A model generated the notes under the pieces. It did not search any database and had not been told where the DNA came from. It was given only the letters and a program-made list of their open reading frames with translations. A DNA stretch of 64,000 bases, from contig CBDDFZ010000001.1 in NCBI GenBank assembly GCA_965227515.1, forward strand, positions 1,696,001 to 1,760,000, in the 5' to 3' direction. The position numbers were made by a program, and so were the translations under genes. Below, one piece after another: positions 17,577-58,828 of the stretch (positions are counted from its first letter, which is position 1; each line of letters starts with the position of its first letter). Source of the DNA: Alphaproteobacteria bacterium. GTDB taxonomy: Bacteria; Pseudomonadota; Alphaproteobacteria; CALKHQ01.

Positions 17577-17993
17577 ATGAAAGCCATGTTGAAGCTCGCT
17601 TGCGCGGTCGCGTTGCCGATGTCGGTGCTTGGTGCCTGCAATTCCAGCGGCGGCGGCGACGGTGCGCAGCCCGCCTTCAATCCGCCCGCCGCCACGCCTG
17701 CCGCCACCGGCGGCGCGTCTGCCGGGGTCAGCGGGTTCGACCTGCTGGATGGCCATGGCGATGTCACGGCGACATGGACCGCGATCGGCAACGGGCAGTG
17801 GCAGATCCAGAATTTCGGTAACGGCGAGTCCGGCACCGTTCAGGAGATCGGGCGCTCGGATTGCTGCATCACGTTCCAGGTCACGCCGGAAGCCGTGTGG
17901 AGCGTGGATTTCAACGGCATGGAACTGAACATGGCCCCTGGCGAAAGCGATTCGCGCTTCACCATGGACGTCAGCGGCGTTACCCGGGGCTGA
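17577..17993 (+). CDS. Hypothetical lipoprotein
   Basis: Lipobox LGA-C, AAGGGG RBS, beta-rich C-terminus. Confidence 0.7.
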
Positions 17994-18717
17994 TCGCCGT
18001 CTGCGTTCGGCGGTCGAAAACCTCTTCGAAGGCCTGGAGCAGCGCGATATCGGCGTCTTCCATCGTGACCGGTAGGCCTAGGTCGACCAGTGAGGTGACG
18101 CCGTAGCGCTGCTCCGCGGTCTCCGCGATGCCGCACGGCACGATGCCGGCGAAGTGCTCCAGGTCCGGCTCCACGTTGAAGGCGATGCCGTGGAAGGTCA
18201 CCCATCGGCGCACGCGCACGCCGATGGCCGCGATCTTGTCCTCGCGCCCGCCGCCCCGGTCGACCCAGATGCCGACCCGGCCCTCGCGCCGCTCGCCGCG
18301 CACGTTGAACGCGCGCAGGGTGACGATCATCCATTCCTCCAGCAGGTGGACGAAGCGGCGCAGGTCCCTGTCGTGGTGGGTCAGGTCCAGCATCACATAG
18401 CCGACCCGCTGGCCGGGGCCGTGATAGGTGTACTGCCCGCCGCGCCCGGTGCGGTAGACCGGGAACCGGTCCGGCTCCAGCAGGTCCTGGGGCTTGGCGC
18501 TGGTGCCGGCGGTGTAGAGCGGCGGGTGCTGCAGCAGCCAGACCTGCTCGGCCGCCGTGCCCTCATGAATGGCGGCGGCCCGCGCCTCCATCGCGGCGAC
18601 GGCACCGGGATAGTCGACGACCGGTCGGTCGCTGATCTGCCACTCGACCGGCGGCGGCATTTCGGCTGCGACCGAACCGACTTTTTGCTGGGTGATCGTG
18701 CTGGGATCGGCGTGCAT
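17980..18717 (-). CDS. lipB: Lipoyl(octanoyl) transferase
   Basis: [38 protein letters not shown]. Start is 18717 or 18660. Confidence 0.95.
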
Positions 18718-18782
18718 AGCTTGAAGATATGTAGGCGATTTGCTATTTCCCCACCACTGAATTGAGCGCGAAAGCGCCGTTT

Positions 18783-18869
18783 GCGGTCGTGGCGGAATTG
18801 GTAGACGCGCAGCGTTGAGGTCGCTGTGGGGTAAAACCCGTGGAAGTTCGAGTCTTCTCGACCGCACCA
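18783..18869 (+). tRNA. tRNA-Leu(GAG)
   Basis: GCGGTCG acceptor stem, D-arm GGAATTGGTAGAC, anticodon arm CAGCG-TTGAGGT-CGCTG, long variable arm, GTTCGAG T-loop, CCA end. Confidence 0.97.
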
Positions 18870-18921
18870 TTCCTCAAAATAGCCGCCCACCCTTAGCGGC
18901 CAACGGACCGGGACCTCGCCG

Positions 18922-34124: not shown

Positions 34125-35063
34125 TCACACCGGGATCAGCGTGATGCCGTCGTTGGTCGCATGGTACTCCGGCAGGATGAACACCATCACGTCGCTGCTG
34201 TTGTAGACGTATGTGTAGGACTCGGTGCCGTTGCCGCCGGTGATGAAATAGCTGCCCTGGATGGAGTCGCCATCCAGGAACGCGTAGTTTTCGATGATAT
34301 CGGGCACGCCGTCGGTGCCGGCGATGAAATAGTCAGCGCCTGCGCCGCCCACCAGCATGTCGGTGCCGTTGCCGCCGTCATAGGTGTCGTCGCCGTCGCC
34401 GCCGTGCAGGTAGTCGGTGCCGTCGCCGCCGAACATCATGTCATTGCCGCCGCCGCCCCACAGGCGATCGTCGCCGGCGTCGCCGTACAGAATGTCGTTA
34501 CCCACCGCGTCGTAGCCGTCGCCGAACAGGCGGTCGTTGGCCTCGCCGCCGTGGATCGTGTCGTGGCCGTACATGCCGTAGATCCAGTCCTCGCCGCCGC
34601 CGCCGTCGATGGTGTCGTTCCAATAGCCGCGGGTGTAGGCCAGTTCATGGTGGTCGCCGTTGATCCAGTCGTGGTCGTCGCCGCCGAATATCCGGTCGGC
34701 GCCGGCGCCGCCATAGAGCTTGTCCTCGCCATCGCCGCCGTCGATCAGGTCGTTCCCGGCGCCACCGAACACCGTGTCGTCGCCGTTTCCGCCATAGAGC
34801 GAGTCGTTGCCGGCCATGCCGTCGATGGTGTCGTGCCCGTCCTCGCCATGGAGCGTGTCGTCGTCCTGCAGGAACGGGTTGGGCGTGCCGTTGCCGATGA
34901 TGATGTCGTTGAACGGCCCGCCATGGATTTCATCGTCCCCGGCGCCGCCGATGAACGTGCCGCCGATCTGGTCGTATTGCGGCTCGGGCGGCGCCTCGCG
35001 CGTATCGGGCGTCCACCGGAGATCGGTCTGGAGGGAACTGGGCGGGGTGCTGCTGCGGGCCAT
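34125..35063 (-). CDS. RTX/hemolysin-type calcium-binding repeat protein
   Basis: Many GGxGxDxLx nonapeptides, no signal peptide, non-repeat C-terminal tail. Confidence 0.88.
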   Translation of the reverse strand: MARSSTPPSSLQTDLRWTPDTREAPPEPQYDQIGGTFIGGAGDDEIHGGPFNDIIIGNGTPNPFLQDDDTLHGEDGHDTIDGMAGNDSLYGGNGDDTVFGGAGNDLIDGGDGEDKLYGGAGADRIFGGDDHDWINGDHHELAYTRGYWNDTIDGGGGEDWIYGMYGHDTIHGGEANDRLFGDGYDAVGNDILYGDAGDDRLWGGGGNDMMFGGDGTDYLHGGDGDDTYDGGNGTDMLVGGAGADYFIAGTDGVPDIIENYAFLDGDSIQGSYFITGGNGTESYTYVYNSSDVMVFILPEYHATNDGITLIPV

Positions 35064-35520
35064 GATATCGCTCCGGAGTCGTGCGTTGCCGGTAGGTCGC
35101 AGCCGGCGTGGGCCCGGTTCATTGCCTCTTGCGGGCGCGCACGCGTGCCTTCGATGTTGGACACATCGCGCTCTGGGACCATATTGTCGGATGCGATTAG
35201 CGGCGATTCCGCCGTTCGCGGGCGCTTGACCGTGAAAATCGGGCCCTCGGCCGTTAAGATTCAGGCTCGACCCGACGCTGGTCTGTTTGTATCAAATGGG
35301 GATGTGTCCGGCAGGTAGGCCGGATGGCATCATCAAGCCCGGTGGGGAAGAAAAGGGGAGTCATGCCGGCTCTGAAAAACCAGCCACCTCGTGGATTGAC
35401 CGGTGCGCCTCTTGTCAGCTTCGCTGCGCCGGCATGTGCGGCTCTTGGGTCCGCGCATGTGCCTGCATGCCATCGCCCATACCATCGCCACGTGGGTTTG
35501 CGAGGCGCCTGGATAGACGC

Positions 35521-38500
35521 ATGAACAAGCAGGTCACCACCAAGCGCGGCCGCCTGAACATCGCCGAAGGCAGCGCCCCCACACAGCCCGACGCGCAGGA
35601 GCTTTCGCACCTGTACCGCGCGATGCTGACGGCGCGCGAGATCGACCGGGTCGAGGATGTGGCGACCCGGCGCGGCGAGGCGTTCTTCCACGTCTCCGGC
35701 AAGGGGCACGAGGGCTCGGCGGCGCTGGCGCTGCACCTGACCAACGACGACTGGCTGCACTGCCACTATCGTGACAAGGCGCTGATGGTGGCACGCGGCA
35801 TCACCGCGCGCGCGTTCTTCGACGGCTTCTATTGCAAGGACGCCTCGCATTCGCGCGGGCGCCAGATGTCGGCCCATATGTGCGATGCCTCGCTGCGCGT
35901 TGCCAGCGTGTCCGGCCCGGTCGGCAATGGCGCGTTGCATGCTGTGGGCATGGCGCTGGCCGGCAAGGACATGGAGACCCGGCCCATCGTGCTGTTCTCC
36001 TGCGGCGACGGCACCACGCAGGAGGGCGAGTTCCTGGAGTCGTGCGCCGAGGCGGCGCGCGCGGAAGCCCCGGTGCTGTTCTTTGTCGAGGACAATGGCT
36101 GGGCGATCTCCACGCCGACCGCCGGCAAGACGTTCTATGCCCTGCATGCGCAGCGGCCGGACGCCTTCCACGGTATCCCGATCCACCGCATCGACGGGCG
36201 CGACGCGATCCAGGCGTGGCGCGAGCTCGGGCCCATCGTTGCGCGCATGCGGCGCACCCGCCAGCCCGCGATCGTCGTGTTCCAGGTCGCGCGCATCGCC
36301 AACCACACCAACGCCGACGACCAGTCGATCTACCGCGACGCGGCCGACATCAAGCTGGCCGAGGAAACCTGCGACCCGATCCCGATCCTGGAAGACCAGC
36401 TCCTGGACATGGGGTGGAGTGCCGCCGATCTGGCGGCGGCCAAGGACGAGATCGCGCGCCAGGTGGCGGAGGCCGATGAGGCGGCGGCCTTCGGGCCCGA
36501 CCCCGAGCCGATGCTGACGGCCGACGTGGCGCCGTCGGCTGCGGTCGCGGAGGCGTTGCAGCCCGGTCGTGCGCGCAAGCCCGCCGCGGCGCCGGCGCCC
36601 GCCGCGGTGCCGAACACGCCGCAGACCATGGGCGAGGCGATCCGTGCCGTGCTGCGCGGCCGGCTGGCCGACGACCCGCGCGTCTATCTGTGGGGCGAGG
36701 ACATCGAGGACCCGAAGGGCGACGTATTCGGCGTAACCAAGGGCCTCAGCACCCAGTTCCCGAAGCGCGTGGTCAACGCGCCGCTGACCGAGTCCACCAT
36801 CGTCGGCGTCGCCATCGGCCGGGCGATGGCCGGCGAGCGCCCGGTGGCGTTCCTGCAGTTCGCCGATTTCCTGCCACTTGCCTACAACCAGATCGTCAGC
36901 GAGCTGGGCAGCATGGCGTGGCGCACCGACGGCGCCTTGACCGCGCCTGTTATCATCATGGTGCCGTGCGGCGGCTATCGCCCCGGTCTGGGGCCGTTCC
37001 ACGCCAGTTCGTTCGAATCGCTGATGACCCACACGCCGGGCATCGACGTGGTGATGCCGTCGACAGCGGAGGATGCGGCCGGCCTGCTGAACGCCGCCTT
37101 CGAGTCAACCCGGCCGACGGTGTTCTTCTATCCCAAGAGCTGCCTCAACGACCCGCGCGGCGCGATGACCGGCGATGCCGGCCAGGTCAGGCTGACGCCC
37201 GGATCGGCGCGCAAGGTGCTGTCGGGCCGCGACCTGACAATGGTCGGCTGGGGCAACACCGTGCGGCTGTGCGAGCAGGCTGCCGAGGCGCTGGAGAAAG
37301 CCGGTGTCGAGGCCGAGGTGTTGGACCTGCGCAGCCTGGGGCCCTGGGACAAGCGGGCGGTGCTGTCGTCGGCGGAGACCAGCGGCCGGCTGCTGGTGGT
37401 GCACGAGGACAACCACACCAACGGCTTCGGCGCCGAGATTCTGGCGACGGTCGGCGAGCAGTGCCGCACCCATGTGGCCATGCGCCGGGTGACCCGGCCC
37501 GACACCTATGTGCCGTGCAATTTCGCCAACCAGATCGAGGTGTTGCCGTCGTTCAAGCGGGTGCTGGAAACGGCGGCCGACATGCTGGACATCGACGTCG
37601 AATGGACGCCGCCGCCGGCCGCCGAGGAAGGCATCGTGCTGGTCGAGGCCATCGGGTCCGGCCCGACCGACGAGACCGTCGACGTGGTCGAGCTGATGGT
37701 CGAGGTCGGCCAGACTGTCGAGCGCGGCGAGGAGATCGCGGCCCTTGAGGCGATCAAGAGCGTGTTCGAGCTGACCTCGCCCGCCTCCGGCGTGATTGAG
37801 GAGATCGTCGTCGGGATCGGCGAGACGGTGCCGGTCGGTGCGCCGCTGATGAAGATCCGCACCGACGACACCACCCAGCGCGCCAAGCCCTTGACCCACG
37901 AGGCGCCCGGCACGCCCACCCTGACCCGGCGCGCCAAGCCGGCGGCACCGGCTGTTGCCGGCAGGGGCGAGGGCGCCGCGGCCCAGCCGGCCGGCACGCT
38001 CAGGGTCGGGCTGTCGCAGGTCGCCACCGTCACCGGCAGCCGGGTGGTGCCGAACGAGGAACTGGTACAGGGCCGCACCGACGACACCTACCGCGATGCG
38101 GAGAAGCTGACCGGCATCCGCGCCCGCCATTGGGCGGCGGAGGGCGAGACGGTGCTGTCGCTCGGCGTGCGCGCGGTGCGTGCGGCGCTGGAGGCGAACG
38201 GGCTCACCGCCGACGACCTCGACCTCGTGATCTGCAGCACGACCACGCCAGATCAGGTGACGCCCTCCGTGGCCTATCGCATCCTGCGCGATGTTGCCGG
38301 CGAGCGCGGCAACCCGGCGGTGGCCGCCTATGACATCAATGCGGCATGCTCGGGCTATCTCTACGCGCTGCAGGCCGCGCACGACTTCCTGCAGAACCAG
38401 CCGCAAGGCCGTGTGCTGGTGGTGACGGCCGAGGTGCTGTCGCGGCTGCTGGACCGCGACGACCCGTCGACCGTGCTGGTGTTCGGCGACGCGGCGTCGG

Positions 38501-38952
38501 CCACCGTGGTCTATGGCGACGCGCATTTCGATGGCGCTGCCGCGCGCCTGTTCCGCCCTGATATCTCCGGAAAGAGCGACGACCGCAACGCGCTGACCGT
38601 GCCGGTGCCAGGCCAGGGCTATGTGCGGATGGACGGCCAGCGGGTGTTCCGCGAGGCGGTGCGCGCCATGGTCGGCAGCCTGAACCGGGTCTGCGCCGGC
38701 CAGGGGCTGGGGCTCGGCGACCTGGACATGGTGGTGCCGCACCAGGCCAACCAGCGCATCATCGACGCCATCGCGCAGCGCACCGGCGCCAACGCCTATT
38801 CCAACATCAAGCATTTCGGCAACACGTCGTCGACCAGCATTCCGTTGTGCCTGGCCGAGGTGCTGCCCGACGCGCCGGCCGGCCAGCGGCTGGGCCTGTG
38901 CGCCTTCGGCGGCGGCTATACCTACGCGGCCGCGGTGCTGGAAACCGTCTAG
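35521..38952 (+). CDS. Fusion protein: 2-oxoacid dehydrogenase E1alpha + E1beta + lipoyl domain + beta-ketoacyl synthase III
   Basis: HYRD and ThDP motif GDGTTQEGEF...EDNGWAIS; GEDI...VFGVTKGL and PLTESTIVG (E1beta); lipoyl LEAIKSVFEL; KAS III triad NAACSG, PHQAN, GNTSS, all in one ORF. Confidence 0.92.
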   Translation: MNKQVTTKRGRLNIAEGSAPTQPDAQELSHLYRAMLTAREIDRVEDVATRRGEAFFHVSGKGHEGSAALALHLTNDDWLHCHYRDKALMVARGITARAFFDGFYCKDASHSRGRQMSAHMCDASLRVASVSGPVGNGALHAVGMALAGKDMETRPIVLFSCGDGTTQEGEFLESCAEAARAEAPVLFFVEDNGWAISTPTAGKTFYALHAQRPDAFHGIPIHRIDGRDAIQAWRELGPIVARMRRTRQPAIVVFQVARIANHTNADDQSIYRDAADIKLAEETCDPIPILEDQLLDMGWSAADLAAAKDEIARQVAEADEAAAFGPDPEPMLTADVAPSAAVAEALQPGRARKPAAAPAPAAVPNTPQTMGEAIRAVLRGRLADDPRVYLWGEDIEDPKGDVFGVTKGLSTQFPKRVVNAPLTESTIVGVAIGRAMAGERPVAFLQFADFLPLAYNQIVSELGSMAWRTDGALTAPVIIMVPCGGYRPGLGPFHASSFESLMTHTPGIDVVMPSTAEDAAGLLNAAFESTRPTVFFYPKSCLNDPRGAMTGDAGQVRLTPGSARKVLSGRDLTMVGWGNTVRLCEQAAEALEKAGVEAEVLDLRSLGPWDKRAVLSSAETSGRLLVVHEDNHTNGFGAEILATVGEQCRTHVAMRRVTRPDTYVPCNFANQIEVLPSFKRVLETAADMLDIDVEWTPPPAAEEGIVLVEAIGSGPTDETVDVVELMVEVGQTVERGEEIAALEAIKSVFELTSPASGVIEEIVVGIGETVPVGAPLMKIRTDDTTQRAKPLTHEAPGTPTLTRRAKPAAPAVAGRGEGAAAQPAGTLRVGLSQVATVTGSRVVPNEELVQGRTDDTYRDAEKLTGIRARHWAAEGETVLSLGVRAVRAALEANGLTADDLDLVICSTTTPDQVTPSVAYRILRDVAGERGNPAVAAYDINAACSGYLYALQAAHDFLQNQPQGRVLVVTAEVLSRLLDRDDPSTVLVFGDAASATVVYGDAHFDGAAARLFRPDISGKSDDRNALTVPVPGQGYVRMDGQRVFREAVRAMVGSLNRVCAGQGLGLGDLDMVVPHQANQRIIDAIAQRTGANAYSNIKHFGNTSSTSIPLCLAEVLPDAPAGQRLGLCAFGGGYTYAAAVLETV

Positions 38953-39434: not shown

Positions 39435-40238
39435 CTATTCCGATCCGCGGGCTGAGATGCCGCCGTCCACCGGCAGGCAGGCGCCGGTGATGTAGCTGGC
39501 CTCGTCGGACGCCAGGAACAGGATCGCGGCAGCAATCTCGCGCGGCCTTGCCTGCCGCTTCATCAGGCCCGGCCCGCCCTCGTACGGGCGTTCGGTGACG
39601 GCAGGGTCGATGGGCGCGCCGCGTGCCGCCGCCCGCTTCAGGTGGAACTCTGTCAGGGTGGCGCCCGGCAGCACGGCGTTGACCCGGATGCCGGCTTCGG
39701 CATGGTCGCAGGCCAGCGAGCGGGTCATGCCGAGCATGCCGGCCTTCATGGTGTCGTATTGCAGCATGCCCGGGCGGCCCGACTGCGCGTGCACCGACGA
39801 GACGTTGACGATGGTGCCGCCGGCCGGCATCAGCGGAATGACGTGCTTCGCGGCCAGCGCGGCGCCGCGCAAGTTGACGGCGTAGATCGCATCCCAGCTT
39901 GCCTGGTCCGCCTCGGTCACCGGGCCATAGGCGCGGATGCCGGCGTTGTTGACCAGCACGTCGACCCGGCCGTGGCGCTCCGCGCATTGGTCGGCGAGCG
40001 CTTCGATCGCGGCCTCGTCCGCGACATCGACCTCCGCCGGCCAGACGCGCGCGCCAACGTCTTCGCCCACGGCCGCGCCGCACTCGTGGGCAATCGTCTC
40101 AGCCGTTTCTTGTGCGTCGCTGAAGTAACGATCGACCAGAACGACCGTCGCCCCCTCGGCCGCGAACATCATCGCTGTCGCCCGGCCAATCCCCGCGCCG
40201 GCGCCTGTTACAACCGCAATCCTGCCGTCCAGCTTCAT
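39435..40238 (-). CDS. SDR-family oxidoreductase
   Basis: TGAGAGIG, NNAG, NVSS, YDTMK (YxxxK), RVNAVLPG. Confidence 0.92.
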   Translation of the reverse strand: MKLDGRIAVVTGAGAGIGRATAMMFAAEGATVVLVDRYFSDAQETAETIAHECGAAVGEDVGARVWPAEVDVADEAAIEALADQCAERHGRVDVLVNNAGIRAYGPVTEADQASWDAIYAVNLRGAALAAKHVIPLMPAGGTIVNVSSVHAQSGRPGMLQYDTMKAGMLGMTRSLACDHAEAGIRVNAVLPGATLTEFHLKRAAARGAPIDPAVTERPYEGGPGLMKRQARPREIAAAILFLASDEASYITGACLPVDGGISARGSE

Positions 40239-40353
40239 CAATTGCCTCGCTCTTTCTGTCCTTCGATGGCGTTCGGATAACTTCCGATCATTTGACATTC
40301 TTTCTTGGCCGTGCCTACGCTCGATCATCGGGTTTGCAGAAGGCGTTCCCCCA

Positions 40354-40926
40354 ATGGCCGACTTCCCGATTCCGATTGGCGTGGACCGCATGCTACGCGA
40401 CATCGCGGAGGGCATAGGCGGCGCCGCGCGCATACTCCCCACGGTATCCCGGTCCGAGGTCGGAGCGGTTGCCATGCGCCGCGCCACGGTCGCCATCGAC
40501 TTCGAGCTTAGCAGCGCCGCAAAGCGGACAGATGACAGCATCGGTCTGGGCGCAAAGACCTTCCTGTTCGGTTTCGGTGCGTCGACGGAAACGACCGAGA
40601 CGAAGGTGCTGAACCACGGCCGGATCGAGATGGAGATCGTCGCCATCGTCGAACCGGAGGAGGGTGAGCGACCGAAGACCGCCACGCCGGCTCAACCCGG
40701 CCCGCCCGTGAAGGCGCCAACTCCCCTGAGCGCAGATCAGATTCGCCAGGCCCTGGCGATAATCCAGGGGGAACTCCACAACCTTCCCCTGGACGAGGAG
40801 GCACGCGGGAAAATCGAGGCCAAGATCGCGGAAATACACGCTGCGATATCGGCTGGCGACCTGCACCTCGCCAATGAATTGCTGCAATATATCAAGGACA
40901 TTGTGCAGGAAGTCCTGAACCCCTGA
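40354..40926 (+). CDS. Hypothetical protein 1 of three-gene cluster
   Basis: GAAGG RBS; helix, then long alternating beta-hairpin, Pro-rich linker and helical tail. Confidence 0.7.
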   Translation: MADFPIPIGVDRMLRDIAEGIGGAARILPTVSRSEVGAVAMRRATVAIDFELSSAAKRTDDSIGLGAKTFLFGFGASTETTETKVLNHGRIEMEIVAIVEPEEGERPKTATPAQPGPPVKAPTPLSADQIRQALAIIQGELHNLPLDEEARGKIEAKIAEIHAAISAGDLHLANELLQYIKDIVQEVLNP

Positions 40927-48076: not shown

Positions 48077-49987
48077 TCACGCAAGCGGCCCAACTAGTGC
48101 CACCTCGTCAGTGTAGTCTTGAATGACGAACAGCAGTGCACCATCGGCCTGATGGACGTTTGTGTTGCTGCCATCGACCACTGTGTAGTCGCCACGGACC
48201 ACATCTCCATCGTCGAAGTTGTAGTCCATGATGATGTCCGTTCCGCCATTCTCGAAATTGTCGACCTGGTTGCCGATGCCCTTGTGATCGAAGTGATCGG
48301 CACCCTCGCCACCATAGAGAATGTCGTCGTCGCGGCCACCATTCAGGGTGTCGTCCCCGTCGCCACCATTCAGCGTGTCAACGCCTGTTCCGCCATTGAC
48401 CTCGTCATTGCCGGAACCGCCATTCACGATGTCATCGCCGTCATCGCCCTGCAGGAAGTCGTCGTCGGCTCCGCCATCCAGCAGGTCGTCGCCGAGCCCA
48501 CCGAGCAAGAAGTCGCCGCCATCGTCCCCAAACAGCTGATCCATTCCGTCGTCACCGGACAAGAAGTCCTCGCCGTTTCCGCCGAACAGGGTGTCGTTGC
48601 CGCCGTTGCCAAACAGCGCATCCATGCCGTCCAGCCCGCTGATAACGTCGTCACCTCCCATACCCCGGATGATGTCGGCGCCACTGGTGCCTGTCAGTTC
48701 TTCGGAATCGTCGGTGCCGTTGATTTCGTTGAAATCGTCGGAATCCGGCCCGTGCTTTCCGCCGGAGCCCGAGCCCGAGCCGCTGCCGGAACCCGACCCC
48801 GAACCGCTGCCGGAACCGTGCTTTCCGCCGGAGCCCGAACCCGAACCACTGCCGGAACCCGAACCACTGCCGGAGCCATGCTTGCCGCCGGAGCCCGAAC
48901 CCGAACCGCTGCCGGAACCCGACCCCGAACCGCTGCCGGAACCGTGCTTTCCGCCGGAGCCCGAACCCGAACCACTGCCGGAACCCGAACCACTGCCGGA
49001 GCCATGCTTGCCGCCGGAGCCCGAACCCGAACCGCTGCCGGAACCCGACCCCGAACCGCTGCCGGAACCGTGCTTTCCGCCGGAGCCCGAACCCGAACCA
49101 CTGCCGGAACCCGAACCACTGCCGGAGCCATGCTTGCCGCCGGAGCCCGAACCCGAACCACTGCCGGAACCCGAACCACTGCCGGAGCCATGCTTGCCGC
49201 CGGAGCCCGAACCCGAACCACTGCCCGAGCCGTGCTTGCCGCCGGAACCAGAGCCGGAGCCCGAACCTGATCCACTGCCGGAGCCGTGCTTGCCGCCGGA
49301 ACCAGAGCCGGAACTCTTGGCGTACCAACCGCTGGGCGCAACGCCATCGAGCAGGTAGTCGGAACTATGCTTTCCGCCGGAGCCCGAGCCGGAACCGCTG
49401 CCGGAACCCGAACCCGATCCGCTACCGGAGCCGTGCTTGCCGCCGGAACCCGAGCCGGAGCCCGAACCCGATCCACTGCCCGAGCCGTGCTTGCCGCCGG
49501 ACCCCGAGCCGGAGCCCGAACCCGATCCGCTACCGGAGCCGTGCTTGCCGCCGGACCCCGAGCCGGAGCCCGAACCCGATCCGCTACCGGAGCCGTGCTT
49601 GCCGCCGGAACCCGAGCCGGAGCCCGAACCCGATCCACTGCCCGAGCCGTGCTTGCCGCCGGACCCCGATCCGGAGCCCGAACCCGATCCACTACCGGAG
49701 CCGTGCTTGCCGCCGGAACCGCTACCGGAACCCGAACCCGATCCGCTACCGGAGCCGTGCTTGCCGCCGGAACCTGATCCGGAGCCCGAACCCGATCCAC
49801 TGCCGGAACCGTGCTTGCCGCCGGAACCCGAGCCTGAGCCCGAACCTGATCCACTGCCCGAGCCATGCTTGCCGCCGGAACCCGAGCCGGAGCCCGAACC
49901 CGATCCACTGCCCGAGCCGTGGTAGGCGCCAGAGCCATTGCCCCCACTCAGATAACCTTTGAAATAGAGCTCATCGTACAAGGACAT
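48077..49987 (-). CDS. RTX-repeat secreted protein with Gly-Ser/GGKH tandem repeat domain
   Basis: AGGGGG RBS before MSLYDEL; 20 GGKH-(GS)n units, then GGxGxDxLx repeats and a C-terminal tail. Confidence 0.88.
48750..49925 (-). repeat. Intragenic tandem repeat encoding GGKH(GS)5-9
   Basis: One block has a 54-bp period (49433-49870), the other alternates 60 and 66 bp (48750-49200); they are separated by a unique [17 protein letters not shown] spacer. Confidence 0.95.
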
Positions 49988-50557
49988 TGTGTTCCCCCTA
50001 GTTCGTCGGTTGCGTAGGCCTTCGCCCTCTCCCGTTTCAGTCTCGGAAGCCGGAAAGCACGACAATCGCCAAAGGTTAATCCAAGGGACGAGTTTTTGTA
50101 ATGAATTTTACATATTTTTACATTGCAATCGTTTTCAGGTTTTTCAGTGTTTCTTAGAAACCTTCTAGATCTTACGGAGACACGTTATGGTGGTTGAGTC
50201 TCTCAAGCATCCCGACAGCTTAATCTTGCTCGGTTCGAAAGACTTGGCAGCGATGCGTCCGTGCGAACGATTTAGAGTTTGAGGGCGTCTACCTTTGCAC
50301 ACATCCAGGTGAAGAGCTCGGAAATGGACCAGGTGAGCATCATACGGATCGACCAGCGGGTGGTGTCGGACCGTGGTGACGGATCAACTGCGCAACGACG
50401 TATGCGACGATCTGCTTTGAGCTGGGCCGAGGTGTATCTTTTCGAGCCGTTGTCCGCCGGGTGCGGTTGCTGTAGCGATACCTGTTCGCTTAGACTCATA
50501 CGCACACGGGCTCCGACCTCCGATCATTGGATCAGTCTGTGAAGGGATGGGGTGCGA

Positions 50558-52588
50558 ATGGCAAGTGTAATCGATGGTGTGGCAACGCTTGCCGCTGCTT
50601 ATCCTGGCTTGATCCCAACGCCTGTGGGAAACAGTTCCAGCAGCGCGGCAACGATGCCGAAACGGCGGGATGTGTTGGACGATGCGGGGCAGACACCTGA
50701 TAGCCTGTCCGACCTGCTAGCGCGCCTCGCTGAAGCACAGGCTGGAGCCTGCCGCATGTCTGACGTCTTGGGCCTGTTCCCAAGAGTATCGGCGGCAAAG
50801 CTATGGGACGACCTTCTGCGGTTCCTGCGAACGGAAGACTCAGATTCTGGCGATGACACGGGCGCAGCCGCGTTTTTCACCAAGACCGATACCGCGCGAT
50901 ATTTCAGGCTCTTTTCGACGCGCGCGCCGATGGTCTTGCCTCTGCTGCGAGCGGCGGATGGCCTGCCACCCACCATATGCGTCCCAAACCTGATGCCGGG
51001 CGACCAGACACCACAAGGTGTGCTTTCCGGGACTTGGGAACGTAGCTTAGCCGGCCCCGCTGGCATGCTGTTGCATGCGATGTTGGGCGGATGTGCGGAA
51101 GTTGCTGAATGCCTCGGGCATGGAATCGACCCCGATGCCGAACGTGCGTCGCACACCCAACGACAGCCTACAGATGCCTACGCCAACGCTTTGCAAGCAT
51201 GTGGGTATGCAGGACAGGCCGACCTCGAGCACGGACTGCCGGGAGCCGTTTGCGCTGGTGTGATTGTCGAGATACTCGAACTAGGAAGGAGTTCGTCTGA
51301 GTCCAGCTCGGAGCGAAAGGCTGCTCGAGGCAGAATGCGGCCTCTACTGAGCGATCTGCTCGACATGTGTGATCACCTCGCAATGGCGGACGGGGATGCG
51401 GCACTGGCATGCGCGGCCGACTATGCAGCCAACGGTCGAGGTGCAAGAGCTCGCAATCTCATAAGCCGCTGTGTTGTCCTCTATCCAAACGACCCTGACG
51501 TGCTGGCTCAACTGGCAGCACAGCAGCAGGAGACAGGCAGGGAGGACGAGGCGATTGAAACCTATGAGAAAATTCTTTCACTTGTCCCTGGCCATACCGT
51601 TGCACATGTCGGTCGCGGTGACCTCTATCTCAATCAACAACGGTTTGAACACGCGGCCGATGATTACGAAAAAGCTCAAGTGAATGCGGCGCCCGGGGAA
51701 GAGATTGAACAGCGCGGTAAGCTGTTAATTGAGTTGTCCAGCGCATACCGAGAGGCAAAGCAAAATGATGCAATGCCTACAGTGACTGTCAGCGACGACG
51801 AGTTTGCCACAGGGAAGTGGCATCCCGCTCGGTTGTCACTGGCACTGAATATGTTTCGACAGTATGGTGCGCTGAAGATCGCCAACGCATTCGATGTTGA
51901 CTTGCTCACCGCATGCAATCGCTACTTTGTCAAACGCTATTCATCGTATTTCGACCGTGGATCGAAGTCGGACGCCCTCAATATTGGAGACAAGAGATAT
52001 CAGATCGGAATCTCACTTGATGGAGCGTTCAACAACCCGGGCGTATATGCCAACAAGTTCGTATTGTCCCTGATGCAGGCCCTGTTGGGCGAGGATTTCG
52101 TCCTCGGGTGCACCGTTTGCGCCACCTCGATGCCCGGTGCAAAGGATCAGCACCTGCACAAGGATCATAAGTCATTGTTTTCCATGGATGCCGCGGGGGA
52201 GGCGGTAACACTGCCTCCATTCGCGGTGACAACAATGGTTCCGCTCGTGTCGCTCGACCATCGGATTGGCACCACTAGCGTCCGGAAGGGCAGTCATGTG
52301 CTTGGCAGCCGTGCGTCAAGAGATCTACCTTCACAAGAACCTTTGGTCCCGCTTGGGTCGTGCTTCCTGATGGATTTCCGGTTGTCGCATCAGGGTCTGG
52401 CCAACCAGACCAATACAGTGCGACCGATTATCAATATGGTGTACCAACGGCCATGGTTCTTCGATTCCAAGAACTTCACCAAGCACCCACCGCTCCACGT
52501 ACCCGAGGGCGAATTCAAGAAGGTGCCGTCGGAACACCGCCGGCTGCTGGAGTGGGGGACTCGGCCCGCCCCGCAGATTGCGATCTAG
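50558..52588 (+). CDS. TPR-containing PhyH-family 2-oxoglutarate/Fe(II) dioxygenase
   Basis: Central TPR repeats; C-terminal PGAKDQHLHKD (HxD), KGSH, SHQGLAN (His), RP. Confidence 0.85.
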   Translation: MASVIDGVATLAAAYPGLIPTPVGNSSSSAATMPKRRDVLDDAGQTPDSLSDLLARLAEAQAGACRMSDVLGLFPRVSAAKLWDDLLRFLRTEDSDSGDDTGAAAFFTKTDTARYFRLFSTRAPMVLPLLRAADGLPPTICVPNLMPGDQTPQGVLSGTWERSLAGPAGMLLHAMLGGCAEVAECLGHGIDPDAERASHTQRQPTDAYANALQACGYAGQADLEHGLPGAVCAGVIVEILELGRSSSESSSERKAARGRMRPLLSDLLDMCDHLAMADGDAALACAADYAANGRGARARNLISRCVVLYPNDPDVLAQLAAQQQETGREDEAIETYEKILSLVPGHTVAHVGRGDLYLNQQRFEHAADDYEKAQVNAAPGEEIEQRGKLLIELSSAYREAKQNDAMPTVTVSDDEFATGKWHPARLSLALNMFRQYGALKIANAFDVDLLTACNRYFVKRYSSYFDRGSKSDALNIGDKRYQIGISLDGAFNNPGVYANKFVLSLMQALLGEDFVLGCTVCATSMPGAKDQHLHKDHKSLFSMDAAGEAVTLPPFAVTTMVPLVSLDHRIGTTSVRKGSHVLGSRASRDLPSQEPLVPLGSCFLMDFRLSHQGLANQTNTVRPIINMVYQRPWFFDSKNFTKHPPLHVPEGEFKKVPSEHRRLLEWGTRPAPQIAI

Positions 52589-52606
52589 CGGGCTGCCGAG
52601 GCCGCC

Positions 52607-54166
52607 GTGCACGCCGAGATTATCGACGACTTCAGGAAACTTGAGAACCTGCGCGCGAACTGGGACGAACTCTATCGCAAGGATCCCGATGCGCAGCTAT
52701 TCCTGTCCTGGCCCTGGCTCTCGCATACATTTCGACGTCATCCAAAGCGCACATTTCTGATACTTGCCGTGCGCCCCGACACGCCTCGGGATCACTATCT
52801 TGCGTTCATGCCGTTGAGGCTAAGTTTGCGAAATGATGACAAGCTTGGAGGCTATTGCAACGAGCTCTACATGGCCGGCAACTACTGGGCGGACTATACG
52901 GGCTTCGTCGGCGACCCGGACCGTGACGCAGAAACCATACCGGCACTTGCAGCGGCGCTGAAATCTTTGTGTTGGAAGTCACTGCATCTTGACTTCCTGC
53001 ACATGTCGGAGGCCCGGACGGAAGGTTTGCTCGCTCAGTTCTCCGATGACACATTTCGGGTCGTTCGCCGGACCCGTGTCTCGCCGGTCGATGGCACCAA
53101 TTCCCTGATTTGTCCGTATATTGAGCTACCCAGTGAGTTCGATACTTACCTAGCCACCAATATGAGCGCTAACACACGGCAGAAATTCAGACGCTTTAGC
53201 CGACGTATCGATCAGTCGGACGTACTGGCTATCTCTGAGTCCAGCGCCCAGACCCGCTCGCGGGATCTTGACATACTGCGTCAGTTTTGGGTCGAAAAGT
53301 GGAGAACGCGAAAAGGCGACAGCACTGAGCGGCTTGGACGAAGATACGTCGATATTCTCGCGGCAGCAATGCGCGACGACATGGCCTATATTTGTCTGCT
53401 CTGGCGTGGTGATCAGCCATTGGGCGCGCTTGGCCACTTGATCGACTGGGAGAAGAAGTGCTTGATGTACTATGTCGCTGGTCGTGACGAAAAGGTCCAG
53501 GGCATTCCGATAGGCCTTCTTTTACATGGACACAGTATTCGGTGGGCGATTGAGCAAAAAATTGAAACCTATGATTTTCTTTGTGGTAATGAGTCCTTCA
53601 AGTATTCGTATGGTGTGCGAGAGCGTCAGATCAGGTGCTATGAAATCCGGACCAGGTCCGGATTCAACCTGCACGGCAGGCTCGACCCTCGCACAATGGA
53701 AAAAGCGCTGGAGCGTGCCACCCGGGCCCAAGACCGTGGGCGACTAAGCCGGGCTGAAGCCGGCTATCGGCAGGTGCTCGCAATCCGGCCCACCTCAGCG
53801 CGCGGTCTGCGCCGGCTCTCTCGCTTGCTCGTATCGCAGGGACGCTCGGCGGAAGCCGACGAATTTCTCGAAAGACTCGTTGAGTTGCGAGACAAGAGCG
53901 CGCTGGCGTGGGACATGCTTGGGCGGGTGAAGTTCGACTTGGGCGACTACAGGGAGGCTCGTTCATCGCTTATGCGGGCCGTCTCCCTCGGATCCGATGT
54001 ATCTGATGAGGCAGTCTCTTGTCTTGGTCGCGCCTGCCTGAGAATAGGCGATCCCAACGAAGCTGGTCGATGGTGCGATGTCTTGGCCGACCGTGCTCGA
54101 ACAAAAAACAGCATGTCTGCGCAGGCTCTTGCAGAAAACCTTCGTAATGAAATTGAACGTTCTTAA
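52607..54166 (+). CDS. CelD/BcsL-type GNAT acyltransferase with C-terminal TPR
   Basis: LFLSWPWL, ADYTG, CPYIELP, GLLLHGHSIRWAI, YDFLCGNESFKYSYG, then TPR motifs. Confidence 0.85.
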   Translation: MHAEIIDDFRKLENLRANWDELYRKDPDAQLFLSWPWLSHTFRRHPKRTFLILAVRPDTPRDHYLAFMPLRLSLRNDDKLGGYCNELYMAGNYWADYTGFVGDPDRDAETIPALAAALKSLCWKSLHLDFLHMSEARTEGLLAQFSDDTFRVVRRTRVSPVDGTNSLICPYIELPSEFDTYLATNMSANTRQKFRRFSRRIDQSDVLAISESSAQTRSRDLDILRQFWVEKWRTRKGDSTERLGRRYVDILAAAMRDDMAYICLLWRGDQPLGALGHLIDWEKKCLMYYVAGRDEKVQGIPIGLLLHGHSIRWAIEQKIETYDFLCGNESFKYSYGVRERQIRCYEIRTRSGFNLHGRLDPRTMEKALERATRAQDRGRLSRAEAGYRQVLAIRPTSARGLRRLSRLLVSQGRSAEADEFLERLVELRDKSALAWDMLGRVKFDLGDYREARSSLMRAVSLGSDVSDEAVSCLGRACLRIGDPNEAGRWCDVLADRARTKNSMSAQALAENLRNEIERS

Positions 54167-54483
54167 CAAAATGCAGGTTAATCAGGGAGGCTATTAGTCT
54201 TTTAATTGGTTATTGCTGGCCGATATTAGCGCTCGTGACTTTCTCGCTGGATCAGTCGACTGTGAGGTGCGCTCGGCGTTGGGATCTCAGGCAATCTGCA
54301 GGGCGTTGAACGCATATGCCAGCGATCTGGCGATGGCGCGATCGCCCGCCTGGTCGCCCACGAGATGGCCGGCACCGCCGGCCGCTGACGCCTGATTGGA
54401 ACAGAAAGTGTAACCGTTAGACTTTTCCACGCCCTGTGGAGTCTAACGGCCAGTCGGCTGCGGCGGCTATATCAATGATGCGA

Positions 54484-54532
<49 letters not shown>

Positions 54533-54591
54533 TCAGAACAGTATTGAGAACAATGGCTTATCAATGAATTGTTGCGTCTGTGTCGCACACA

Positions 54592-55692
54592 TCATCCGAC
54601 CAGCGCGAGTTCCGCCGCATCGAGGCGTTCCTGGTCGCGGCCTTCGTCAGGCCACAGGTGGGCATACAGATCCATGGTCATGACGATGGACTCGTGACCG
54701 AGCCGGCTCTGGACTTCCTTCTCGCGGTAGCCCTGGTGGATGAGCCACGAGGCATAGAAGTGCCGCAGGGCGTGCAGGCCATACTTCGGCTTGCCGTCTT
54801 TCGTCAGGCCGGCTTCGATCTGCATCGGATCGAAACCGCGCTGGCGGATGTTGGCGTAGGATTCGACGTTACCCTTGCCGTTCGGAAACACGAGGTCCAG
54901 ACGGCTGGCTGGGCACCGTAGCTTCCATTCCTTGAGAGTGTTGCTGACGAGCTTGCCGATGGGAATGTCGCGAAAGCCGGCTTCGGACTTCGGCGCACCA
55001 ATGGTGCCCCATTCGTCTGCCCGCTGCCGTACATGGATGACGCGATCTTCCGCGTCTTGCCAGCGCAGGGCGCGCAACTCGGACGCGCGGAGGCCCGTCA
55101 TGGCGGCGACTACGACGAATGGACGCCAGCGGTCGGACGCAGCGGCGATGAGCTGTTGAACCTCAGCCATCGTCGGAGGGACCACCCGTTTGCGGTGCCG
55201 CTTTGGCACGTCGATAGTGGTCTTGCTGGCGACGTTCTGTCCGACCAGGCCACGACGTTGCGCGTCGTACAAGACTGACTTGAGGCTGGTCAGCACCTTG
55301 CGTGCCATTGGCCGCGAGTGCTTTTCCAAGAGCCGGTCACGAAACGCCTCTGCATCCGGCGCGGTGAACTGAGTCAATCGAGTGCTTCCAAGCTCCGGCG
55401 CGATGTGCAGACGGACGTGGCGACGATACGCCACCAGCGTGTTGCGCTCGCGCCCTTCGGCTTCCAGGCGAGCCAGCCATAGGTCGGCGGCTTCCTGAAT
55501 GGTCTTCGACGCACCATCGGCTACGTGGGTACCGCGACGCACATCGACGTGGGTCTGGCTCGCCCACGCGTCCGCGTCCTTCTTCGTGGAGAACGTCTTG
55601 AGGCGGCGCTTGCCCTGTCCGTCTTTGTAGTCGACAACCCAGGCCGTCCGATCCTTGCCACCGCTGGACCATTTCCGCTTTCGAACTGCCAC
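54592..55692 (-). CDS. int: Tyrosine recombinase/integrase
   Basis: N-terminal arm-binding region; TGLRASEL (R), PKS (K), HALRH, LGH, LYAH (Y). GTG start after GGAGG. Confidence 0.95.
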   Translation of the reverse strand: MAVRKRKWSSGGKDRTAWVVDYKDGQGKRRLKTFSTKKDADAWASQTHVDVRRGTHVADGASKTIQEAADLWLARLEAEGRERNTLVAYRRHVRLHIAPELGSTRLTQFTAPDAEAFRDRLLEKHSRPMARKVLTSLKSVLYDAQRRGLVGQNVASKTTIDVPKRHRKRVVPPTMAEVQQLIAAASDRWRPFVVVAAMTGLRASELRALRWQDAEDRVIHVRQRADEWGTIGAPKSEAGFRDIPIGKLVSNTLKEWKLRCPASRLDLVFPNGKGNVESYANIRQRGFDPMQIEAGLTKDGKPKYGLHALRHFYASWLIHQGYREKEVQSRLGHESIVMTMDLYAHLWPDEGRDQERLDAAELALVG

Positions 55693-55803
55693 GACCGCCT
55701 CCATTGGTTACGTCGCATTCCCATATTGTTGCAAATACTCCCTGTGTCAATGGTCGTCGCCAGATGAGCGCCGAAAAAAATGTCTGCGTGCCGCAGTTAA
55801 TGC

Positions 55804-56105
55804 TTGCCAGCGGGAAAAAATGTGGGCATCTTCAACGCGGTCCCGAAGTGCGCCCGCGCTCCGGGATTATTTGTGCCCGAACTTCAGGGAATATCAACCG
55901 CAACGGGAATGACCCGTTGACACCCATCCGAAAAGTGAGGTAACACCAACTCGTTCCCGAAGTGCGCCTAAACGGTGGCTTCGGGTTTGTTGTTTTCGGC
56001 CCTCGCGCGGACTCAACGTCCGCTAGAAAAAGCCGTTGACAGCCATCCGAAAATTACTTACCTGAACGTCGGGCCCGAAGTGCGACTGCATTCCGGGCCT
56101 TTTTC
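55804..56105 (+). promoter_or_regulatory. Three tandem promoter + hairpin units (candidate small-RNA array)
   Basis: TTGCCA/TTGACA/TTGACA at 55804, 55917 and 56036, each 38-39 nt before CCCGAAGTGCG (55842, 55956, 56074), which opens a hairpin followed by a T-rich tract. Confidence 0.65.
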
Positions 56106-56107
56106 AT

Positions 56108-56177
56108 GCCCGCCCGGCCGCCGTCGGCGCGGGCTTTTTCATACCCGCCCAGCATCCCGCTGCGGCGGGTTTTTTTT
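56108..56177 (+). terminator. Two stacked intrinsic terminators upstream of xis
   Basis: GCCCGC...GCGGGC-TTTTT and ACCCGCC...GGCGGGT-TTTTTTT. Confidence 0.75.
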
Positions 56178-56195
56178 GTCCGAACGAGGTGAACC

Positions 56196-56405
56196 ATGAC
56201 CGACACGCTGGGTGACGATCTGCTCCACGGCGTCAAAGCCATCGCCGCATACATCGGCGAGAGCGAGCGCCGCACCTTCTACCTGCTTGAGCGCAACATG
56301 CTGCCCGCCACGAAGCTTGGCGCACGGTGGGTGTCCCGCAAGTCCGCTATCGCCAAGCGGTTTGACCTCGATGGCGACCAGCGGGAGACGTGCAATGCAG
56401 CCTGA
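56196..56405 (+). CDS. Excisionase/AlpA-like HTH DNA-binding protein
   Basis: GAGGTG RBS; LLHGVKAIAAYIG...RRTFYLL...LPATKLGARWVSRK winged-HTH pattern; divergent from int. Confidence 0.8.
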   Translation: MTDTLGDDLLHGVKAIAAYIGESERRTFYLLERNMLPATKLGARWVSRKSAIAKRFDLDGDQRETCNAA

Positions 56406-56574
56406 TCTGATTGCCAGGTCGATTATCCGTCGTTGGCGCGAAGGGTTGCGCGGCGATGAACTCCACCTGGCCGTACGCGCGGATTTTCCGGATTGTCCGT
56501 CGGAGGTCTACGGCGCTGCTGCGGCTGCTGCTTGGGCAGAGATGCGAGGTGCGACCAGCGATGATGCGGCCTGA
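56395..56574 (+). CDS. Small hypothetical protein
   Basis: GGGAG RBS; overlaps both neighbouring genes. Confidence 0.5.
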   Translation: MQPDLIARSIIRRWREGLRGDELHLAVRADFPDCPSEVYGAAAAAAWAEMRGATSDDAA

Positions 56575-57256
56575 AACGAAACCGCCGCCTCCGGTTGGCG
56601 GAACCGGGGCGGCGGTGAAATGGAATTGGCTTGGCGGCTCAAATTCCGACACCGAACATACCGCCACCGCCGCAGATGTTCAACTGCCAGTCGACTTGCA
56701 CCACGAGTTGGCCATCGCGCAGCGCCTTGCAGGGCGATATGGCCTGGACAACAAACTTCAGGCCTACGGCATTACCCCTGCCGACCAGATCGAAACCGAT
56801 GTGATAGCAGTCGACCGCATCCTAGTCGGCGCCGGGCGGTACTCCCCACTTCCCCATCATTTGCCTACAGACAGGTTGAGCCGGCCATCCGAGTTGTGGT
56901 GCCTCACCCCGATCCGTTCTCCAGCGGGCGAGGTCTTCAACGTGGTGGCATGGCGGCCGAACAGTCGCCAGACTTACGTGCGGATGCGCTGGCCGGCGCT
57001 ACTGGGCTGCGGCATCGGAGACGATCCCATCGACCGCGCCCTGATCTGTGACGAGCCGCTGGTCGTCTACGGCACAGTCGCGGCGTGGCACAGGCAGGCG
57101 CATGGCCCTGGTGTCGTGTGGTTGAACGACGACGTGTCGGAACTGTGGGGTGTCGACCGCGCCCTGACTGATGACATGGAGACGTTGCGCAAGCTGCGGG
57201 TCGCAGACGTTGACGCGCGGTTCATTGCTGCGGAGGTGGATGCCCATGCAGCATGA
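56561..57256 (+). CDS. Hypothetical replication-module protein (possibly divergent primase/TOPRIM-like)
   Basis: Directly upstream of the helicase; TPIRSPAGEVFNVVAWRP...EPLVVY...PGVVWL. Confidence 0.55.
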   Translation: MMRPETKPPPPVGGTGAAVKWNWLGGSNSDTEHTATAADVQLPVDLHHELAIAQRLAGRYGLDNKLQAYGITPADQIETDVIAVDRILVGAGRYSPLPHHLPTDRLSRPSELWCLTPIRSPAGEVFNVVAWRPNSRQTYVRMRWPALLGCGIGDDPIDRALICDEPLVVYGTVAAWHRQAHGPGVVWLNDDVSELWGVDRALTDDMETLRKLRVADVDARFIAAEVDAHAA

Positions 57257-58304: not shown

Positions 58305-58447
58305 CCAGCGCTGAAACCATGGCGAAACCATGGGGCGAAACCATGCGAAACCGCCCTGAAACCATAGTGAAACTGCGGCCTTCGTTGCGCGCAACCATAA
58401 GCGAAACCACCGCAACCGGTCCCTTATGGGACCGTTGCAGTTTCGCA
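58293..58447. repeat. Iteron array, putative replication origin
   Basis: About nine GAAACCAT/GCAACC copies at roughly 11-bp spacing, then the palindrome GGTCCC-TTAT-GGGACC and inverted copies. Confidence 0.75.
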
Positions 58448-58637
58448 GGCCTGTTGATGGCGGGGAAAGAGCCTCTGCAAACCACATCGGGCCACGCGCG
58501 CGAAGGTCTACCAGCGTGTGTTGTTCTGCCGCCTTGTTGCGAAAAGGGATATATTATCCCCGTGTCAGTCGTTGCTTTTCGTTGGGTTTGTGGCATATTG
58601 TTGCGGATGTGTCGCATGAGCCACGAAGGAGGGCCGC

Positions 58638-58826: not shown

Positions 58827-58828
58827 CG

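Follow-up and report, generated by a model that had tools for sequence, protein, structure and literature searches.

We analyzed a stretch of 64,000 nucleotides (hereafter the window) from the genome of an alphaproteobacterium (assembly GCA_965227515.1, 5.52 Mb in two contigs). We focused on a gene at 35521–38952 on the forward strand, whose product, P0002, unites in one chain the E1alpha and E1beta parts of a 2-oxoacid dehydrogenase, a lipoyl domain, and a domain related to FabH, a 3-oxoacyl-acyl carrier protein (ACP) synthase III (KAS III). This composition suggests an enzyme that could make fatty-acid primers from 2-oxoacids without free acyl-coenzyme A (acyl-CoA). An earlier note on this DNA had described an intact open reading frame (ORF) with these four modules, Ala/Pro linkers between them and no E2 acyltransferase core, and all of this was confirmed. 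The gene is a single uninterrupted ORF encoding 1143 amino acids, with an ATG at 35521 and a TAG at 38950–38952; its coding frame of 3429 nucleotides is unbroken and its catalytic residues are all there. The longest version of the frame begins at a TTG at 35287, and the extra upstream stretch has no counterpart in the relatives of P0002. A scan for promoters and terminators gave two overlapping weak promoter-like sites at 35158–35187 and no terminator, and was uninformative.

Six Pfam domains were recovered in P0002, each above its curated cut-off: E1_dh (residues 32–329, 134 bits against a cut-off of 22), Transket_pyr (368–542, 90 against 27), Transketolase_C (561–671, 96 against 25.9), Biotin_lipoyl (718–779, 50.4 against 22.1), ACP_syn_III (937–1000, 69.5 bits), and ACP_syn_III_C (1061–1141, 76.1 bits). 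The E2 core family, 2-oxoacid_dh (PF00198), was not matched in the Pfam search of P0002, and the sequence between the modules is rich in Ala and Pro. The AlphaFold2 model of the whole chain had a mean predicted local distance difference test score (pLDDT) of 88.6 and a predicted template modeling score of 0.81, with low confidence limited to residues 1–15, 354–358, and 808–824. The equivalence of residues to those of solved E1 and FabH enzymes was taken from alignments to solved structures. The features of the gene are the following, with the FabH positions in the numbering of the Escherichia coli enzyme and ThDP standing for thiamine diphosphate and BCKDH for branched-chain 2-oxoacid dehydrogenase:

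35614–36507, + strand: E1alpha module (residues 32–329, Pfam E1_dh)
36007–36009 (Asp163) and 36094–36096 (Asn192), + strand: ThDP/Mg motif Gly162-Asp163-Gly164...Asn192, from alignment to solved E1s
36304–36306, + strand: His262 in the "HTNADD" loop, aligned with the second His of the human BCKDH "HHSTSDD" loop
36508–36621, + strand: Ala/Pro-rich linker between E1alpha and E1beta (residues 330–367; pLDDT below 50 at 354–358; length variable in the family)
36622–37533, + strand: E1beta module, pyrimidine-binding and C-terminal domains (residues 368–671)
36790–36792 (Glu424) and 37000–37002 (His494), + strand: aligned with the conserved Glu and the "HSQS" His of solved E1beta
37633–37872, + strand: lipoyl domain (about residues 705–784, Pfam Biotin_lipoyl)
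37756–37758, + strand: predicted attachment site, Lys746 in "EAIKS", at the hairpin tip
37879–37929, + strand: conserved post-lipoyl motif (residues 787–803; R787, P790, E794, G797, and P799 nearly invariant)
37930–38004, + strand: flexible linker rich in Ala, Pro, and Gly (residues 804–828; pLDDT below 50 at 808–824; not conserved)
38005–38949, + strand: KAS III (FabH-like) domain (residues 829–1143, from Pfam and FabH alignments)
38095–38097 (Asp859 for Trp32) and 38464–38466 (Pro982 for Arg151), + strand: replacements in the CoA site, from the FabH alignment
38260–38262, + strand: pocket residue Thr914 for Phe87, from the FabH alignment
38347–38349 (Cys943), 38740–38742 (His1074), and 38821–38823 (Asn1101), + strand: catalytic residues, from alignments to 1hn9_A and 4ryb_A
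38755–38757 (Arg1079) and 38779–38781 (Arg1087), + strand: aligned with the ACP-docking patch of the E. coli enzyme

In an alignment of 120 members of the family, G162, G164, N192, His262, Glu424, His494, Lys746, Cys943, His1074, and Asn1101 were invariant, as was Arg1079, the equivalent of Arg249 of E. coli FabH, while D163 was nearly so.

The nearest solved chains to the E1alpha module were 1um9_A (131 bits) and human BCKDH E1alpha (125 bits), and the E1beta module matched 1um9_B with 198 bits by sequence and a template modeling (TM) score of 0.94 by Foldseek. By alignment to solved structures, both E1 modules were closest to the branched-chain-type enzyme of Thermus (1um9) and to the human or Pseudomonas BCKDH. 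The fused E1alpha–E1beta part of the model also superposed in Foldseek on single-chain E1s of the SucA/OdhA type, over about 780–817 columns. His262 and His494 presumably act in reductive acylation, a role that we take from the title of the Protein Data Bank (PDB) entry 1ols. No equivalog model for pyruvate dehydrogenase (PDH) or BCKDH was reached, the best NCBIfam E1 models scoring 188 against 411, 181 against 454, and 173 against 321. In a genome of the same class, we observed an open frame of 742 amino acids made of E1alpha and E1beta (G019:C1:553893–555962, locus L008) that is 34% identical to residues 9–682 of P0002. The KAS III part was not seen there, and this frame may be an intermediate state of the fusion.

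The lipoyl region fitted the NCBIfam lipoyl models of E2 enzymes (1e-16 to 1e-9) better than the biotinyl model (2e-7), with a weak Pfam match to GCV_H at residues 719–762, and the domain adopts an all-beta fold in the AlphaFold2 model. Lys746 would be lipoylated in P0002. The domain is strongly acidic, with 16 Asp/Glu to four Lys/Arg. ACP is likewise acidic, so that the lipoyl domain could plausibly dock on the basic patch used by ACP. The conserved motif that follows (residues 787–803) had no family match, and a beta-strand is predicted at 798–803 in the model; it might anchor the lipoyl domain or help to recruit the E3 component. A predicted complex of the lipoyl domain (residues 700–786) with a KAS III dimer (two copies of residues 825–1143) scored 0.00, which speaks neither for nor against their contact.

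Distribution of the fusion and residues of its KAS III domain

A search of 5.8 billion proteins, in which 8000 candidates were scored and 1569 reached E ≤ 1e-3, showed that a view of the gene as unique does not hold. The best 119 relatives of P0002 have the same six Pfam families and are 1094–1214 amino acids long and 54–67% identical to it, with 96–99% query coverage. When one genome of each prokaryotic species was scanned, relatives were encoded at at least 585 of at least 597 pattern matches, and all the 80 loci listed matched near full length with 46–60% identity. These loci came from Pirellulaceae and other Planctomycetota, Spirochaetaceae, Alkalispirochaeta, Marispirochaeta, Pontiellaceae/Kiritimatiellales, Verrucomicrobia, Lentisphaerales, Nitrospirales, Sumerlaeota, Armatimonadia, a cyanobacterium, and Gammaproteobacteria. 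The fusion family is found mainly in Planctomycetota, Spirochaetota, and Kiritimatiellota. The names given to the relatives in their sources vary ("transketolase," "2-oxoisovalerate dehydrogenase E1 component," "beta-ketoacyl-ACP synthase 3" or "FabH"), which suggests that none carries a curated function, and the family is apparently widespread and uncharacterized. In a protein atlas, we recovered only clusters of fragments, with the same domains as P0002.

The earlier note had raised the possibility of an assembly artefact, and this was excluded. Besides the 119 relatives with the same domains, there are contigs of about 97% identity from other studies that span the junctions between E1beta, lipoyl domain, linker, and KAS (X2 record 13 and X4 record 30). 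A further one, X1, contains this stretch in identical form and may be its source. The shared architecture and the bridging contigs indicate that the fusion is due neither to chance nor to misassembly, and the sequences compared show it to be under selection. A split form consisting of lipoyl and KAS III domains was considered for some shorter database proteins. These start inconsistently, at query residues 561–881, and most lie on short contigs, so that they were taken as truncated calls and not as a split architecture. Forms longer than 2001 amino acids were not found in the database search, which is weak evidence.

The KAS domain of P0002 superposed on FabH structures in Foldseek with TM scores of 0.90–0.92, and PqsD and BioZ were among its structural or sequence relatives. 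To compare individual columns, 81 fusion proteins (P0002 and the 80 loci) were aligned, and 69 were left after removing eight mis-extracted ORFs and four proteins without full coverage. The comparison set consisted of eight standalone KAS III genes from the genome of P0002 and five other fusion-bearing genomes, of which the six best FabHs were counted. The triad Cys112/His244/Asn274 was kept in 69 of 69 fusions and in six of six standalone FabHs. At position 249, Arg was present in 68 of the 69 fusions, and the FabHs had Arg in five cases and Lys in one. The signature "HQAN...GNTSS" was invariant in the fusion family, and "GDGAGA" was changed to "GDA(A/S/T)SA."

The CoA site differed from that of the standalone FabHs. 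Trp32, present in all six standalone FabHs, was found in none of the 69 fusions (Asp 55, Ala 6, Glu 5, and Ser, Lys, and Asn 1 each). At position 151, where five FabHs had Arg and one Lys, neither residue occurred in the fusions (Phe 29, Pro 20, Leu 5, Gln 5, Tyr 3, Val, Ala, and Gly 2 each, Glu 1). In structures of E. coli FabH with CoA, the adenine is stacked between these two residues (PMC4606726). Judging from these columns, the residues for condensation and the equivalent of Arg249 are conserved in the fusion family, and the half of the acyl-CoA site that binds the nucleotide has been lost. The position of Phe87 is occupied in the fusions by Thr (61), Ser (7), or Ile (1), and in the standalone FabHs by Phe (3), Leu, Cys, or Met (1 each). 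Phe87 of E. coli FabH is described as blocking the acyl channel and limiting the primer to acetyl, and a Thr at this position in Mycobacterium tuberculosis FabH as giving a larger cavity (PMC3734052, PMC12625853). The acyl pocket of the fusion KAS is thus probably larger.

Genomic setting and origin of the gene

The genome encoding P0002 has an E3 that exceeds the NCBIfam cut-off, together with LipA and LipB, as well as three E2 cores, all outside P0002. Its only PP-binding (ACP) match is at C1:2856924, 1.1 Mb from the fusion, which leaves the housekeeping ACP as the only candidate for a malonyl-ACP partner. A canonical FabH (110–132 bits) was present in this genome and in five of five other fusion-bearing genomes checked. 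At G000:C1:832095–835632 (locus L111) in the genome of P0002, we also observed a third, divergent KAS III-like gene, whose product has 395 amino acids, together with genes for a haem-oxygenase-like iron enzyme, a DUF6999 protein, and a TetR regulator, a group that looks like a small uncharacterized metabolite cluster. A link of this gene to a lipoamide dehydrogenase 5 kb away was considered and rejected, as chemoreceptor and OmpA genes lie between them and the two look unrelated.

The gene of P0002 stands alone, without operon partners. As the earlier note had stated, we found no E3, ACP, or polyketide synthase (PKS) gene near it. The same note had pointed to lipB in the window; the gene does lie there (18016–18564, − strand), but it is the sole housekeeping copy of the genome, 17 kb from the fusion, and no signal of linkage. 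The longest lipB frame (17980–18870, − strand, 296 amino acids) overruns a tRNA-Leu(GAG) at 18783–18869 (+ strand). As the LipB match is confined to 18016–18564, the true start of lipB is probably further downstream and the protein shorter. Other features of the window are:

34125–35063, − strand: RTX-repeat gene, upstream of the fusion and divergent from it
39435–40685, − strand: short-chain dehydrogenase (SDR) gene, downstream of the fusion and convergent with it
54592–55704, − strand: phage-type integrase
57171–58304: AAA_25 protein
60112–60942: terminase large subunit

The SDR frame encodes 416 amino acids with the SDR domain beginning at residue 156, so that either its start was miscalled or the protein has an N-terminal extension. 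A second gene with RTX calcium-binding repeats lies at 48077–50065 (− strand), about 9 kb downstream of the fusion, and dozens of DNA matches to the RTX repeat part were found in a genome of the same family (G001). Further from the fusion are a molybdopterin oxidoreductase operon and genes for HlyU, isochorismatase, and hydantoinase A/B. The last three features listed above lie in the region 50000–64000, which has a G+C content of 0.56–0.64, against about 0.68 elsewhere, and is probably a prophage or an integrative element. Just before this element are two genes encoding TPR-PhyH (50552–52588) and TPR-GNAT (52607–54166) proteins.

Among the 80 loci listed, no conserved neighbors were recovered beyond the synteny expected within lineages, the largest cluster comprising 19 of the 80. 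The neighbors are housekeeping genes (histidine kinase, aconitase, NeuB, seryl-tRNA synthetase). The absence of conserved partners and this housekeeping setting fit a role in primary metabolism better than in a biosynthetic gene cluster.

A full-length match was found in none of 40 related genomes (three of the same family and 37 of the same class), and among 401 genomes of the class, from 307 genera, the only match at E ≤ 1e-120 was in the genome of the window itself. Phylogenetic analysis was performed with FastTree on 85 rows (P0002, five database relatives, and 79 of the 80 loci), and eight rows with end or stem branches longer than 4, corresponding to wrongly extracted ORFs, were disregarded. 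P0002 formed a clade with P0003–P0007 (support 100), one member of which is named as a gammaproteobacterial metagenome-assembled genome, and this clade branched within the Pirellulaceae (supports 97 and 99). The rest of the tree largely followed the phyla. The nesting within Pirellulaceae and the single occurrence in the class indicate that the gene was probably acquired horizontally. We read the tree as that of an old family, mostly inherited vertically, whose copy in this lineage would come from a Planctomycetota-like donor. The G+C content at third codon positions (GC3, 0.90) is like that of the neighboring genes; the transfer was therefore not recent, or the donor had a similar G+C content. 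Synteny with three genomes of the same family was too poorly conserved to define the insertion site.

A candidate lipoyl-to-ketosynthase route and its alternatives

The domain set, the catalytic residues, the missing E2 core, the loss of the CoA-adenine site, the retained Arg249 equivalent, and the presence of E3, LipA, LipB, and one ACP are established. The absence of an E2 core in a chain whose KAS has no site for the CoA nucleotide points to a direct thioester exchange between the dihydrolipoyl group and the catalytic Cys. P0002 would then be a self-contained synthase leading from a 2-oxoacid to a 3-oxoacyl-ACP primer, and it probably acts as a homodimer, by analogy with the dimers of E1 and FabH. 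The fused E1alpha–E1beta would decarboxylate the 2-oxoacid with ThDP and reductively acylate its own lipoyl-Lys746. The S-acyl-dihydrolipoyl arm would enter the KAS III tunnel in place of a pantetheine arm and acylate Cys943, and the acyl group would be condensed with malonyl-ACP with the help of His1074 and Asn1101. The 3-oxoacyl-ACP would enter type II fatty-acid synthesis on the housekeeping ACP, and the dihydrolipoyl arm would be re-oxidized by a free E3, in the way known from the H protein of glycine cleavage. Working beside an ordinary FabH, P0002 would provide a second, substrate-specific route of initiation, for which a branched-chain 2-oxoacid, or another one larger than the precursor of acetyl, is the most likely substrate. 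The earlier note had already suggested a transfer from the lipoyl arm to the KAS Cys that bypasses acyl-CoA. The loss of the CoA site, the triad kept in 69 of 69 fusions, and a genome with the fusion and no E2 core speak for it, and the transfer itself is still inferred. We consider it slightly more probable than the opposite that the acyl group passes from dihydrolipoyl to the KAS Cys and is then condensed with malonyl-ACP without E2 core or acyl-CoA. The broader proposal, in which such a relay is a third, CoA-independent start of fatty-acid synthesis, next to FabH with acyl-CoA and the decarboxylation of malonyl-ACP, with an acidic lipoyl domain on the basic patch of ACP, widespread and occasionally transferred into Proteobacteria, has in our view about an even chance of being correct.

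Several points weigh against this proposal. P0002 lacks the peripheral-subunit-binding domain that would recruit E3. The NCBIfam cut-offs for FabH were missed, marginally for PRK09352 (248.3 against 249) and clearly for TIGR00747 (214.2 against 292.1), so that the KAS domain is a divergent relative of FabH whose chemistry could differ. The best NCBIfam matches of the E1 part were to PDH-type models, all below their cut-offs; the replacement of Phe87 by Thr and the likeness of the E1 part lean toward primers larger than acetyl, and both arguments are weak. Arg249 of E. coli FabH is a residue of ACP docking; the same role for its counterpart in P0002 is inferred, as is the fate of the product. 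E2 cores are encoded elsewhere in the genome of P0002 and in nine of ten other fusion-bearing genomes checked, so that an E2 acting in trans is possible in these genomes. Independence from E2 rests on one genome, G042, a complete Nitrospirales chromosome with the fusion, in which no E2 core was matched and E3 and LipA are present. Finally, as FabH is kept alongside, the fusion is dispensable for bulk initiation and its product may be a minor or specialized lipid.

The alternatives differ mainly in what happens to the acyl group after the lipoyl domain. The KAS III domain stands where an E2 core usually follows the lipoyl domain and could simply replace it, passing the acyl group from dihydrolipoyl via Cys943 to holo-ACP or another thiol, with an acyl-ACP as product and no condensation. 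KAS III-like enzymes acting as acyltransferases exist, and the Arg249 equivalent in 68 of 69 fusions and the missed FabH equivalog models would agree with such a role. A pure transferase would have no need for His1074 and Asn1101, the residues of malonyl decarboxylation, which are nevertheless kept in 69 of 69 proteins together with the invariant signature, and the highest overall similarity is to true FabHs; we therefore regard this reading as unlikely. The same mechanism might instead serve a specialized metabolite or lipid, by a non-decarboxylative or head-to-head condensation of the PqsD/OleA/DarB type, or yield a short beta-keto acid. The coexistence with a canonical FabH in six of six genomes checked and the divergence of the KAS (Thr at the position of Phe87, "GDA(A/S/T)SA," the missed cut-offs, PqsD and BioZ among its relatives) make this conceivable. 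It is made unlikely by the 80 loci, in which no tailoring, carrier, or export gene is a conserved neighbor, by the single carrier protein of the genome, and by the fact that the nearest relatives in both sequence and fold are bona fide FabHs.

The E1 and lipoyl parts could also feed a separate E2 core, the resulting free acyl-CoA being used by the KAS III domain as by an ordinary FabH. Fusion of consecutive enzymes of a pathway without channeling is common, and the E2 cores found in most of the genomes checked would allow it. This reading requires a separate E2 core to accept a foreign lipoyl domain, that of P0002, for deacylation. It also has to explain why the residues stacking the CoA adenine occur in none of 69 KAS domains and are both present in the standalone FabHs of the same genomes, why G042 has the fusion without an E2 core, and why an E2 gene is not a conserved neighbor at the 80 loci; we consider it improbable. 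A last reading, in which horizontal transfer left this genome with a gene that is no longer active, seems very improbable. It was found in one of 401 genomes of the class and has no operon partners, but its frame and catalytic residues are complete, its GC3 matches the host, and its relatives at about 97% identity differ mostly by substitutions, with no frame-breaking insertions or deletions listed within the ORF.

If the lipoyl-to-ketosynthase transfer is correct, P0002 would be a new module by which type II fatty-acid synthesis is initiated and would explain a gene carried under misleading names in at least 585 species genomes. It could account for branched or unusual chain starters in Planctomycetota, Spirochaetota, Kiritimatiellota/Verrucomicrobiota, and other groups. 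For lipid engineering, the gene would also be a compact single-gene part with which branched or odd chains could be made from 2-oxoacids derived from amino acids, leaving the CoA pool untouched. The model is directly testable with one recombinant protein.

Comparison with known systems

We found neither a description of an E1–lipoyl–KAS III protein nor a report of a handoff from dihydrolipoyl to a ketosynthase Cys in the literature covered, outside of which lay most subscription journals and supplements. To our knowledge, every described route from a 2-oxoacid to a primer involves an E2 core and free acyl-CoA. The proteins OdhA/KGD of Corynebacterium and Mycobacterium, in which the E1 of 2-oxoglutarate dehydrogenase (E1o) is fused to the catalytic domain of its E2 (E2o) without a lipoyl domain, provide a precedent for single-chain 2-oxoacid dehydrogenase fusions. 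P0002 reverses this arrangement: it has the lipoyl domain, lacks the E2 core, and carries a ketosynthase in addition. The H protein of glycine cleavage is a lipoyl carrier re-oxidized by E3 without E2 core or binding domain; it differs from P0002 in being small and free and in carrying an aminomethyl instead of an acyl group. M. tuberculosis FabH shares with 61 of 69 fusions the Thr at the position of Phe87 and differs in being a standalone enzyme that uses acyl-CoA.

The earlier note had cited quinocarcin and naphthyridinomycin biosynthesis as sets of PDH-like, lipoyl, and KAS III proteins, which has to be corrected. According to a preprint describing QncN/QncL/QncM and NapB/NapD, glycolicacyl-ACP is formed via the E2-type acyltransferase QncL and the ACP QncM, and not by a KAS III (bioRxiv 10.1101/265645). 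These systems resemble P0002 in the fusion of an E1/transketolase-like ThDP module to a lipoyl domain, and they bring a ThDP-derived acyl group to a carrier protein outside central metabolism. They differ from it in that QncL ends in an E2-type acyltransferase and serves a dedicated ACP and a nonribosomal peptide synthetase (NRPS), whereas P0002 has KAS III after the lipoyl domain and none of these.

The BCKDH complex and FabH of Bacillus, Staphylococcus, and Listeria share with P0002 the E1 chemistry, the lipoyl arm, the Cys-His-Asn enzyme, and the logic leading from a 2-oxoacid to a primer. Unlike this pair, P0002 is a single chain without E2 core, subunit-binding domain, or equivalents of Trp32 and Arg151, and, its KAS lacking the residues for the CoA adenine, it probably skips the acyl-CoA intermediate on which the BCKDH and FabH route depends.

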